NCBI GenBank assembly: GCA_963727775.1
Contig: CAVSHB010000001.1
Coordinates: 1,248,001 to 1,312,000, forward strand
Length of the DNA: 64,000 bases
DNA from: an uncultured Nitrospiraceae bacterium
GTDB taxonomy: Bacteria; Nitrospirota; Thermodesulfovibrionia; Thermodesulfovibrionales; SM23-35
Direction of reading: 5' to 3'
Positions 18,001 through 27,000 of this stretch are shown in pieces (position 1 is the stretch's first letter; the number at the start of each line of letters is the position of its first letter). The position numbers are program-made.

Positions 18001-21000
18001 GAAGGTCGTTCTTGTACAGATGGTCACGTTATTGAGAGGCGGAAAACTTGTCCAGATGTCGAAAAGGGCCGGTGAGTTCGTCACGCTCAGAGAGGTCATG
18101 GATGAGGTCGGCGCGGACACGACAAAATTCATATTCCTCACGAGAAGGCCGGACAGTCACCTCGAATTCGACCTTGAGACCGCGAAGGCCCAGTCGTCGG
18201 AAAACCCGGTATTTTATGTGCAGTATGCGAACGCCCGTATAAACAGCATATTCTCCCATGCAAAGGAGAAAGGAATATCTGTTGATACACTGTACGATTC
18301 GGACTTTACGCTTCTGTCGGAGAATGAGGAAATCAGCATAATCAAGAAGCTCCTTATGTATCCTATGATATTTGAGGGCGCTGCCGATGCCCATGAACCA
18401 CACAGGATCACATTCTACCTTCAGGAGCTCGCGGGGACATTTCATCCTTTCTATAATAGACACCGGGTAGTGCTCGATGATATGGCATTGACCAGGGCGA
18501 GACTTGCGCTATGCGACGCGATAAGGATTGTGCTCCGCCACGGCCTGGAGGTGCTTGGGATAAGCGCTCCGGACAGGATGTGATTGACAATATCCATGAT
18601 ATCCTGTTATAAATAACAACTATGTTAAAGAAAACCGAAAAGATATGGATGGACGGCAAACTTGTGAATTGGGATGACGCCAATGTGCATGTCCTTACCC
18701 ATACCTTGCATTATGGGCTCGGTGTGTTTGAAGGTATAAGATGTTATGAAACCGGGAAAGGCCCGGCGATCTTCAGGCTTGATGAGCATGTCGACAGGCT
18801 CTTCAGTTCAGCCCATATCTTTATGATGGAAATCCCCTATTCAAAAAAAGAGATCAGAGATGCGATAATCAAGACAGTAAAAGTTAACAGGATAAAGGAA
18901 TGCTACATTAGGCCTCTGGTTTATATAGGGTATGGCGCAATGGGTCTGTATCCGAAAGAGAACCCGATTAATGTGTCTATCGCTGCATGGCCGTGGGGGG
19001 CCTATCTCGGAGATAAAGGGCTGACCGACGGTATCAGGATTAAAACTTCGTCTTTCATAAGGAACCATGTGAATGCGAACATGACGCGGGGGAAGGTCTG
19101 CGGGTACTATGTGAATTCACAGCTTGCCAAGAATGAGGCCATCTCATGCGGATACGATGAGGCGCTGCTGCTCGACACTGAAGGATATGTGTCCGAAGGT
19201 AGCGGCGAGAACGTATTTATTGTGAGAAACGGCCTGTTAAAGACCACGCCATTGACCTCCATACTCGAAGGTATAACGAGGAGCAGCATTTTGAAAATCG
19301 CTGGTGATGAAAAGATAAGGGTGGTTGAAGAAAGGTTTACACGAGACGAACTGTATATTGCTGATGAGGCATTTTTTACCGGCACCGCTGCAGAGGTGAC
19401 TCCTATCAGAGAGTCTGATGGGAGAGTTGTTGGGAAGGGAAAGCCGGGTGAAATAACCCAAAAACTGCAATCGATATTTTTTAATATTGTGAAGGGTAAG
19501 AATAAAAGATTTGAATCTTGGCTGACGAGGATCTGACTTTTAAAATGCAAAAGGGGTGCGCATTTTAACTGCGCACCCCTTTTTTGATTATTACTCCTAT
19601 TATTTCTTTTCTTCTTTCTTTACTTCTTCCTTTTTATGGCACTTTCCGCAGTCTGATTCTGAGGATTGAGAGAATACTACCTTGCCATTATGGTCTTTCC
19701 CGTCATGACATTTTCCGCAGTAATCGGGTTTCCCGTGGTCTTCTTTTGTCATCTTGAATGAACCTTTTTTCATTCCAAAAGGTTTCGGATGGCAGTCATT
19801 ACATTTCATCCCCTGCTTGGCGCTGTGCGTGTCTCCACTGAATACGACTTTGCCATTGTCTCCACCGGCGTATTCTATCGTTTTGCCCGGACCTACTGCC
19901 ATAGCGCTGCCGACAAACGCGAGAGCTACGAACAGACTAATTATCAAAGTTGCAATCTTCACTATATATCACCCCCTTTCATAAAAAATCTCAGACTCTT
20001 GAGAGTCTGTTACAAATTCCATGCCATACGGTTTAAGCACAACCTATAAAGATTTTACTACAAACAGGTCTCCTCAAAAAGGGAGATATTCTTTATTTAG
20101 GAAAATTATCTATTGATAAACCATCGAGGCTATCTTTGCAGTAAGGTCTCCGAGCATATTAGTATAACTTCCGAGTTCGTTGTCGTACCATCCATAGATA
20201 CTCGCCTGTGTAATAGGGATTTCCATGTTTTGAGGGAGTTGTTTCACGAGTTCGGCGGGCATTCCGGAAAACTTTGAAAGGTCGAGAGTGGCAAAGGCCG
20301 TCCTCGTGTGAGTTTCGTGTCCTTCAATGATAGTGGCCGGACCGAAGTGGCCTACAATGTCTGAGGACACATTCTGCTCATCGGTATATTTAATATAACC
20401 TCTTTTTTCTTTTTGCTCGGCCTTGCGGTAAATATCGTTGATAAGCGTCCTGTTGATTGCAGGGCCTCCGACTTCATCGGAAAAGGTCACTACCAAAATA
20501 ATAAGAGAGCCTGAGGAGGTCGGGATACGCACTGATTCGGCGCTGAAGCCGATCTGGTTCATTTCGGGTATCACAAGGCCGAGGGTTTTGGCGGCCCCTG
20601 TGGTAGTCAGAATAATATTGTTCATGATGCTTCTGTTTTTGCGCAGGTCGGTTGCGCCTGACGTCGGCAGCCTGTCAAGCACCTCCTGGGTACCGGTCGC
20701 GGCATGGACAGTGGCCATGGATGCGTTGAGTATCTTCTTCGCGCTGAAGTAATCCAGTAGCGGTTTAATCATATAGGCGAGACAGGTGGTTGTGCAGGAA
20801 GCGGCTGAAATAATGTGATGTTTGGCATTTTCATAGGTGTCGTCATTGATACCTATTACGGTAGTCGTTGCATCCTCAGGAACAGCAAGGCCTTTTTCTT
20901 TTATCTTAAATGGCGCAGAGACAATGACCTTTTCGGATCCTGCTTCAATATGTCCTCTGACAGAGCCTTCTTTGGCATCCGGCGGGACTGTAGGGTCTTT

Positions 21001-24000: not shown

Positions 24001-27000
24001 ATATACAGCTCATCGATATATGCTCCTGAAGTCTTGATCCGCTGATAAACATCCCCAGGCAGGAATTCCTTCAACGGCGTCTTGTCCTTTGTCCGCCAGA
24101 AGTGTATGACTGCCTCGATAAAATCAACTACACGGGCGCTGCTTTCGACATGGCTCTGCTTCCGCAGAAAATGCACGAGGATATCCGCCCTGTGAGTTGA
24201 TTCATCGATTTCGGTAGAGACTTCTCTTAGCGGGCCTTCAGCCCCGATCTCGCTGAAATAAGCGGGGAACAACTTTGCCATCTGTTTAATGAGGTGATAG
24301 ACGGGTCTGACGTCGCTGTTCAGGAGTTCCGTTATATCTTTCTGGAAAAGATCAGTGTCGTTGATATGTACGCCGCATAATCGCAGATGGATGATTAAGG
24401 CCGAGATGAGTGATTTGGACCACTTGGGATTGTTCTCTATTAAATCAAGCCAGGTACGGATATTTTTAAGGTGGGAGCGATTTGACCTGACCTGCCATTC
24501 GTCGGTTACCCCGCATATCCCCGGATGATGGAACCCGAGAGAGATGATATTTTGCAGATACCACTCAACAAGACCGCTGTTACCTTTATTGTATATTTCA
24601 TTGCCGATAACCTGGACGCAATATAAGGCCGTATCTGCATACATGTTAAAATTAATTTTCAGCATGCCGAGTATCCCGGAAAGTACGCTCTTTATCTGCT
24701 CGGGCTTTTCGATCTTCACAATTACGGAGATCGTTCGGTTGATTTCTCTGAGCGTATTCTCATGTATACCCGAAAGTCCCTTGGTCTCCATGATCATCAG
24801 GAGATAAGCAATCTTCAGGTTAAGGTCATTAAGCGCGGTTCCTGTTATCGCCAGCATGCCTGCAAGTTCTTCATAGAATTTCACTAATTGCATATAACCG
24901 GGCAGTCTTAAGATTTCTTTTAACCGCTCGTAACGGTCTGTGGATTTCCCGACATTGTTGAGTTGAACGACCAATTCATTCAGATGCGCGTGTGAAACGG
25001 GATAGCACAGTTTTTCGAGCTCTCCGAGCTTATTTGCGTTTATCAAGAGATTTGCAGTTTGTTTTAGCCGCAGGAACGGATCTTCTTCCTGAATCCAGTA
25101 TTCATATGTTGCAGATAGGTATCTGACAAGCAGGTTATTGAACATGTCAAGGTCAAAGTGCGACGGGGTTTTCCCAAGGACAATCTGTCCCAGCTTTTTC
25201 AGTTGATGGGGGTTCGTGACAAGCAGGAAAAACTGCTTGTCCGGCAGCTGATAAAGTCTTGCAAAACACTCGTCAAATACAGTTTCATATTTCCGCAGAT
25301 CGCCGTTGCCGTCTATGAGTATTTTTTCGATGTAGAATATAATGCCTTCAACAGCCGACTGCTGCACGCTGTAGTCGGGATTGTTTATCGCTTTTAGAAA
25401 TATATCCAGGATAGTCCTGATGACCTCTATACCTTTTTCGTGGTGGTCATGGACATAGAAATTCTTGAGGGCATACGTCCTTGTCTCTTTTACGATAAAA
25501 CCCCAATCCTGAGGATGGTGGTCCAACTCGCGTAAAAGCGGTTCAACGGCGCTGACAATGCCGGGGTAGTCTTTAACTACCTCCCGCAGGATTTCATATT
25601 CTGATGCTGCAGCTTTTGTATCCGAAGACATTTTAGATTCCTTAATCATTATATAATAGAACATGGCGTTTTTTACATTATTTCAAATGCTGTAAAAAGG
25701 CAGTATAGCCGAAATGAAAGTCTGTGAAGTTTTTACGAGTATACAGGGAGAGTCAAGTTATGCCGGTTTGCCGTGTACGTTTGTTAGGCTGACGGGCTGC
25801 AATCTCAGGTGTTCTTACTGCGATACGCGATATGCATACGATGAAGGCAGCGAGCTTTCGGCGGAAGATATTATGAGGGAAGTACGGATGAGAGGCGTTG
25901 ACCTTGTGGAGATTACCGGAGGTGAGCCGCTGCTCCAGCCGGAAGTTTATCGTCTTATAGGAGAGCTGATAAAGGACGGTTTTACCGTATTGGTAGAGAC
26001 GAACGGGTCAATGAACATCAGCGGTATTGACGCTAAGGCTGTTGTTATCCTCGATATGAAGACGCCCGGCAGCGGTATGCATGAGAAGATGGACTTATCG
26101 AATCTTGACGAGATAAAACGTATTGATGAGGTAAAGTTTGTGATCACGAGCCGGCAGGATTATGAATGGACAATAAAAATAATGAATCAATATGAATTAT
26201 CCAACAAATGCAGTGTCCTCCTGTCTCCTGCATGCGGTATTTTATCCGCGGCGAAACTTGCCCGGTGGATGATCGAGGATAGGCTTAAGGCCAGACTAAA
26301 TCTTCAGCTCCACAAAATCATTTTCGGTGCCGAAATGAGAAGGGTGTAAGACTCCCTGGATACGCCCGGGAGGCTACGGAAAAGCCTTTAATAAAGACCG
26401 CGTTAGAGCATTGTAGACGAATAAAGTCGATGAAATAGATTTGACTTTATTTCTTAGCCGTTGCCCATATATTCATGAAAAGTTCAAAGTACCCGAGACG
26501 TATTTTCTTTTTTGAAAAGTCTGCCTTTTGAAGCAGTGCCGAAATTTTTGCGTGACTGTATGCATCCTTATGTTCTTCGATTTCAATAGGGCTGACCAAT
26601 CTCAATTTGGCAATGAACCTCAGCAGCATATCGGTCCATCCCGCCGGTGTTGTCATAATAAATATTCCACCTTTGCTTAAGACCCTGTGAATTTCCCCTA
26701 TCGCTTCGGGGAGTCTTCCCGGTTCAATATGTTCAAAAACCGCGAGCATGGTCACTACGTCAAAATATTCGCTGGAGAAGGGGAGCGTATTTTCTTTTTC
26801 TATGTCGTAATTTAGAAGAGTAACGTCCTGGCCATAAATCCGGTTGTCAGAAACTTCCGCCATGACTTTATCAAAACCATACTTGTAAGAAAACTCTGTG
26901 TTCAGCAGGAAAAATGGGTATGCGCCGCAGCCTATATCCAAGATTCTTCCCTTTCTATGGGCGGCATCTATGAGTCTGTTGGCCATTCTGCATCTCTGCT

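Follow-up and report, generated by a model that had tools for sequence, protein, structure and literature searches.

Gene pair at the locus

The window analysed here is a stretch of 64,000 nucleotides from the genome of an uncultured Nitrospiraceae bacterium. It holds a gene for a giant dikinase and a gene for a long GAPDH (Table 1), both intact, on the minus strand and separated by 104 nt, so the gene pair described in an earlier note on this DNA exists. A divergent radical-SAM gene flanks the pair upstream and a cytochrome c gene flanks it downstream. Close homologues of the dikinase bear Nitrospirota and Thermodesulfovibrionales protein names. A glycogen phosphorylase gene is found 3.8 kb away in the same window.

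Table 1. Coordinates of the dikinase and long GAPDH features in the window
Feature	Position	Strand	Basis or remark
Gene of the giant dikinase that lacks the barrel (subfamily A; 1387 aa)	21468..25631	-	homologues mostly 1379-1421 aa
Residues 1-339, poorly conserved, presumed helical; possible scaffold or docking part	24615..25631	-	conservation; BLAST against the paralogue
Residues 340-880, putative acceptor-binding domain: a helical, conserved core that contains a beta-hairpin and a four-helix bundle	22992..24614	-
Motif R490-K491-x-x-H494, preceded by D425, R469 and D476	24150..24164	-	conservation
Beta-hairpin motif K668-R669-H670 ... S677 ... Y682-x-E684	23580..23630	-	conservation; strands in models
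PPDK-type ATP-grasp domain (K897, R969, E1213, Q1228, R1230)	21927..22961	-	alignment to 1kbl, E 5.7e-82; conservation
Swivelling phospho-histidine domain with His1319 and Thr1317; the protein terminates here	21507..21884	-	PF00391, residues 1288-1367
Intergenic spacer between dikinase and long GAPDH, 104 nt	21364..21467	-	without a listed terminator-like site
Long GAPDH gene, 417 aa	20110..21363	-	S189, C190, T191, H220, T223, R279, T255 and N395 kept; N37-x-G39-R40 at the Asp32 position

A dikinase without the pyruvate barrel

Only two Pfam domains, PPDK_N and PEP-utilizers, were matched in the 1387-aa protein. Its last 500 residues align with the PPDK of C. symbiosum (1kbl; E 5.7e-82), and the equivalents of residues that we take to be catalytic in PPDK (K897, R969, E1213, Q1228, R1230 and H1319) are retained in 195–201 of the 201 full-length dikinase rows, with His1319 conserved in 200 of them. 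By model scores the protein is nearer to PPDK (E 1e-118) than to PEPS (E 5e-22), and it reaches 397 of 843 bits against the PPDK model TIGR01828, below the family cut-off. The earlier note had argued that this protein cannot be a PPDK, and we agree: the PPDK-type catalytic residues are kept, yet no PF02896 PEP/pyruvate barrel was matched in the dikinase, whose chain ends about 20 residues past the His-domain match. Because the chain stops there, the pyruvate barrel is absent and the dikinase is not a PPDK. The sole PF02896 match in the same genome is the PEPS gene.

The architecture of the swivelling-His dikinase superfamily (EC 2.7.9.-) is present, namely an ATP-grasp domain, a His domain and a separate putative acceptor domain. 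Like PPDK (EC 2.7.9.1; 1dik, 5jvn), the protein has an ATP-grasp followed by a swivelling His domain, with the catalytic Lys, Arg, Glu, Gln, Arg and His and a Thr two positions before the His. Unlike PPDK, it lacks the C-terminal barrel and has an N-terminal region of 880 residues, which contains an invariant cluster of its own. StGWD1 (9HA9, 9QVI) and rifampin phosphotransferase (5hv1-3) likewise combine dikinase modules with a family-specific acceptor domain reached by a swinging His domain, and the acceptor domain of StGWD1 is all-helical with a four-helix bundle, as described in the available text of PMC13553574. However, GWD places its His domain before the ATP-grasp while the giant dikinase has the reverse order, no CBM45 or other CBM was matched in the domain scan, and the ATP-grasp is PPDK-type rather than RPH-type, RPH matches being confined to the ATP-grasp and His parts. 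PRK05878 (NF004531), a barrel-less PPDK-like model of 534 positions, matches the same two parts (E 2e-94), but the giant dikinase scores below its cut-off (317 of 456 bits) and the model is too short to cover the 880-residue region. No description of this dikinase family was found in literature listings or in passages of a review of the PEP-pyruvate node (PMC8100219). The family is a real, widespread and uncharacterised one, which works like PPDK, GWD and RPH and probably carries out a new reaction.

The N-terminal region and its conserved cluster

The two parts of the N-terminal region differ in conservation. No column of residues 1-300 reaches 95% conservation in the 201-row alignment, and the BLAST alignment with the paralogue begins at residue 343. 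In the core, D425, R469, R490 and H494 are found in 201 of 201 rows and D476 and K491 in 197, while the positions of the beta-hairpin motif are each kept in 196–200. Residues 387-684 thus hold a near-invariant Asp/Arg/Lys/His/Tyr cluster, in a part of the model with pLDDT 93.5. The earlier note described the whole region as an 880-aa helical solenoid; the model is indeed helical, but this well-modelled cluster speaks against a mere HEAT scaffold.

Structure searches gave no clear PDB counterpart for the fold of residues 387-684, and among the structural matches listed the helical domain is unlike PGK or any other solved fold. StGWD1 (9HA9, 9QVI) is absent from these matches, and the searched libraries may not contain the two entries. 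Judged by its invariant residues, the stretch 340-880 may be the acceptor domain, with the cluster in 387-684 probably forming a new acceptor site. Its basic and polar character would favour a small anionic substrate rather than GAPDH itself as the acceptor.

The long GAPDH

The long GAPDH exceeds the ordinary GAPDH of its own genome by 83 residues. The Cys/His pair, the Ps and Pi site residues and the WYDNE motif of type I phosphorylating GAPDH are present, and C190, H220, T223, R279, T255 and N395 are found in 101 of 101 rows. Its score against TIGR01534 is slightly under the cut-off (322 of 367 bits), it also falls below the cut-offs of the GAPDH-I and PRK07729 models, and it forms a clade of its own (100/100 support in a tree of a 50-row subsample). 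Conserved inserts are present, among them a 4-residue S-loop insert, together with a D-to-S/T change.

As a rule, an NAD-specific GAPDH has an aspartate, Asp32, where strand beta-2 ends. This column holds Asp in 62 of 62 ordinary GAPDHs, while all 101 long GAPDHs have N-x-G-R there and none is acidic. Because Asp32 is lost, the long GAPDH appears NADP-like, and by sequence it probably uses NADP. The paradigm of an NADP-dependent gluconeogenic GAPDH is GapB of Bacillus. The proposed step and the presence of an Asp32-less GAPDH beside an NAD-type one resemble the pairing of PGK with such an enzyme, but the model scores and the separate clade set the long GAPDH apart.

Distribution and co-inheritance

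In species-representative genomes, the dikinase family was confirmed at no fewer than 552 places out of 598 candidates listed. The best 80 of these (at least 552) places belong chiefly to Desulfobulbales, Syntrophobacterales and Desulfobacterales, cable bacteria included, and cluster names extend the family to Bacteroidales, Cloacimonadota, Delongbacteria, Myxococcota and Thermoleophilia. Cultured hosts exist.

Of 201 own-phylum genomes, 42 contain a dikinase match, 24 with subfamily A and 18 with the paralogous subfamily B alone. The long GAPDH was detected in 26 genomes, namely the 24 subfamily-A genomes plus G056 and G098. In a second phylum (251 genomes), the dikinase core occurs in 84 genomes, the long GAPDH in 80 and both in 78; the six core-only genomes comprise two fragments and four weak matches to proteins of about 1500 aa. 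As for genomes with the long GAPDH only, the dikinase match is interrupted by a stop in G056 and G342, the gene in G098 lies 120 nt from a contig end, and both genes of G317 are remnants. Co-inheritance is thus nearly fixed (24 of 26 and 78 of 80 long-GAPDH genomes), where genomes within a sample are kin and the counts show tight linkage rather than independent events. The long GAPDH was also found in 48 of 50 dikinase genomes drawn from the 80 loci. The dikinase is therefore tied to the GAPDH step, and more firmly than previously claimed, because co-inheritance persists where the genes lie apart.

PGK was matched in 48 of the same 50 genomes, one match being a 30-residue fragment and one being in pieces. 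PPDK was found in 47 of 78 genomes that carry the pair, a lower share than the 143 of 173 among those that do not, and none was found in the own genome, where PEPS is present. Since PGK and often PPDK coexist with the dikinase, it replaces neither of them.

In 5 of 20 subfamily-B loci, a short GAPDH comes after the dikinase. This GAPDH has Ser at Asp32 in the four full-length copies aligned, and was found in 12 of 201 own-phylum genomes. All 12 belong to one family and are among its 13 genomes with subfamily B; the 25 other genomes of the same family lack this GAPDH. Because it forms a clade separate from the long GAPDH in the tree, the dikinase family has been paired with two different Asp32-less GAPDHs. 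Five subfamily-B genomes contain only one ordinary Asp32 GAPDH, which counts against an obligatory partner.

Gene order

Adjacency is more variable than co-inheritance. The dikinase had been described as fixed in front of GAPDH, but the long GAPDH lies near it in only 23 of 80 genome loci and in 39 of 65 loci of a distant clade, while any GAPDH is near in 55 and 54 loci, respectively. The fullest block, gap - dikinase - long gap - pgk - tpi, was seen in L038, L089, L196, L202, L204 and L205, the last four of which come from 40 loci picked because both genes were close. The own genome splits this block into dikinase-long gap and gap-pgk, and Desulfobulbales split it into gap-dikinase and long gap-pgk. 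Such a two-way split is what a single step served by two GAPDHs and two kinases would show. Both GAPDHs share one locus in 23 of the 40 adjacency-chosen loci, and in 9 of 80 and 10 of 65 others.

Genes that recur beside the pair are gap, pgk, tpi and glgA. The last, a gene identified as glycogen-synthase-like by its sequence rather than by a family scan, is located in 27 of 80 genome loci, mainly those of Desulfobulbales, and in 2 of the 65 loci from the distant clade.

Proposed reaction and alternatives

For substrate, cofactor and direction we infer the following scheme, in which the dikinase is, tentatively and at somewhat less than even odds, a 3-phosphoglycerate, phosphate dikinase that supplies an NADPH-dependent GAPDH in gluconeogenesis. 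Going by the conserved residues, ATP bound in the PPDK-type ATP-grasp would pyrophosphorylate His1319, and the gamma-phosphate would pass to Pi and leave as PPi. The His domain would then swing to the helical domain, where the Asp/Arg/Lys/His cluster may bind 3-phosphoglycerate (3-PG), and the beta-phosphate would be transferred to its carboxylate (3-PG + ATP + Pi = 1,3-BPG + AMP + PPi). The long GAPDH would convert 1,3-BPG to GAP with NADPH, a cofactor suggested by the Asp32 loss. The pair would form a second, energetically pushed gluconeogenic PGK/GAPDH step beside the ordinary NAD-GAPDH and PGK. In favour of this scheme are the retained PPDK residues, the invariant cluster, the co-inheritance with the long GAPDH, the gene block and its two-way split, the intact GAP and Pi sites of the long GAPDH, the pairing of subfamily B with a second Asp32-less GAPDH, and the computed energies. 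Against it, the dikinase would be redundant in name because PGK is present in nearly all dikinase genomes, and it differs from PGK in the AMP/PPi chemistry proposed and in having no sequence or fold likeness to it that we could see. The reaction should be reversible, so a PPi-saving glycolysis would be the same enzyme in reverse. We know of no dikinase that makes an acyl phosphate, which also counts against the scheme. The shift of 11 kJ/mol relative to PGK is independent of the PGK value, for which the figure of Court et al. is below the textbook one. With standard energies from the available part of the supplement of Court et al. (PMC4598745), the step computes to -3.0 kJ/mol against +8.2 for PGK, and to -25.8 with PPi hydrolysis.

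A further point against the 3-PG scheme is that, with free exchange of 1,3-BPG alone, the near-strict mutual dependence of the two genes is not needed. This dependence would be natural in a side pathway whose intermediate is common to these two enzymes only, the dikinase activating and the long GAPDH reducing another phospho-acid, e.g. 4-phosphoerythronate, 6-phosphogluconate or 2-phosphoglycolate. The deep clade, S-loop insert and D-to-S/T change of the long GAPDH fit such a pathway, but its GAP-binding residues are unaltered and no pathway gene other than gap, pgk, tpi and glgA recurs near the pair, which makes it unlikely. Co-inheritance would also suit a protein-directed phosphotransferase or switch, in which the dikinase passes phosphate from its His to a GAPDH, or binds one through the helical domain, and thereby selects the active one of two co-encoded GAPDHs and averts an NADPH-to-NADH short circuit. 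The shared loci of the two GAPDHs and the conserved inserts of the long one agree with this, as does the correlation of the dikinase and long GAPDH distance matrices (r 0.77, 86 pairs), which shared ancestry alone could explain. We regard the switch as improbable too, for the dense invariant Arg/Lys/His/Asp cluster is common to subfamilies with unrelated GAPDH partners and looks more like a site for a small anion than one for a protein surface, and a 155-kDa dikinase would be an unusual regulator.

The Desulfobulbales split of gap-dikinase and long gap-pgk fits a channelled energy-driven transhydrogenase cycle, in which dikinase and NAD-GAPDH reduce 3-PG with NADH and the long GAPDH and PGK re-oxidise GAP with NADP. 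The net conversion of NADH to NADPH would cost ADP + Pi -> AMP + PPi, with a computed drive of -11 kJ/mol, or about -34 with PPi hydrolysis. However, 1,3-BPG must be channelled or PGK and dikinase would short-circuit, and the own genome shows the opposite split, so we think this cycle rather unlikely. A glucan (glycogen) dikinase analogous to plant GWD would fit the glycogen-synthase-like neighbour and the glycogen phosphorylase gene nearby. It would also fit the central domain of GWD, which serves as the docking site of the His domain, is likewise all-helical and has no PDB equivalent past the four-helix bundle (PMC13553574, available text). That reading is highly improbable, because it leaves the co-inheritance with GAPDH unexplained, the domain order and the absence of a carbohydrate-binding module in the domain scan differ from GWD, and the glgA-like link is mostly confined to Desulfobulbales. 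The chance is similarly slight that the protein is a pyruvate dikinase whose pyruvate domain is unrelated to the known one: the own genome is without PPDK, and PPDK is rarer with the pair, but PPDK coexists in many pair-bearing genomes, PEPS is present in the own genome, and the GAPDH link is given no reason.

Significance

Few stretches of metabolism are as conserved as the GAPDH/PGK trunk, and few natural variants of it are known, according to the available text of PMC4598745. The dikinase and NADP-like GAPDH suggest that bacterial sugar synthesis includes an energy-boosted step not described before. We see an even chance that several hundred species, among them sulfate reducers, syntrophs and cable bacteria, have a second PGK/GAPDH module made up of a dedicated NADP-GAPDH and a trunk-glycolysis dikinase that forms an acyl phosphate and has a new catalytic fold. 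The two may work as a channelled complex or as an energy-driven cycle from NADH to NADPH. If true, this would add a new reaction to the trunk, in which AMP/PPi coupling offers an alternative to PGK; it would reveal how energy-limited anaerobes push gluconeogenesis or spare pyrophosphate, and engineers would gain about 11–34 kJ/mol of extra drive at a known bottleneck. Database names given to the dikinase family include PPDK and PEP synthase, a misnaming that distorts metabolic reconstructions of Desulfobulbales, Syntrophobacterales, Thermodesulfovibrionia and Bacteroidales.

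Divergent members of the dikinase family

A third dikinase subfamily of 1494-1543 aa was found at four loci (L207-L210, in genomes G373, G469, G449 and G315, respectively), in which D425, R469, R490, H494, K600, Y601 and the catalytic His are retained (giant dikinase numbering), while the K668-R669-H670 motif and Thr1317 are both lost. The long GAPDH is absent from these four genomes, and the acceptor of this subfamily may be different.

Family members P0156 and P0164 have decayed hairpin or His motifs; in P0156 (1540 aa), the catalytic His is replaced by Tyr. At loci L174-L186, which belong to a single group within the second phylum, dikinase and long GAPDH genes lie tail to tail, but their adjacency is kept.

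Related genes in the same genome

All core motifs are retained in the subfamily-B paralogue of the genome under study (G000), whose gene is preceded by two M16 peptidase genes, with no adjoining GAPDH gene at this locus. The sole PEP synthase gene is flanked on either side by kinase/pyrophosphorylase (PF03618) genes; the Thr modified in PPDK by regulators of this type is retained in the giant dikinase. Enolase has two full matches in this genome. The C2 copy of a transposase-like ORF has a PPDK_N match as its neighbour, and this match is interrupted by an internal stop.

The high-GC stretch sits within a surface-polysaccharide cluster. Judged by their translations, its ORFs resemble PEP mutase, phosphonopyruvate decarboxylase and aminotransferase, and look like a putative phosphonate biosynthesis set.

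Coordinates of features in G000 (C1 and C2, contigs)
Feature	Location	Remarks
Subfamily-B paralogue	C1:1222360-1226748 (= L002:12361-16749)	1462 aa
PEP synthase	C1:1444076-1449003	single gene
Enolase matches	C2:808359-809198; C1:1404440-1405285	
Transposase-like ORF	window 11180-12565; C2:689021-690406	461 aa, two copies
High-GC stretch	window 34640-39957	56-61% GC vs 42-47% for the window
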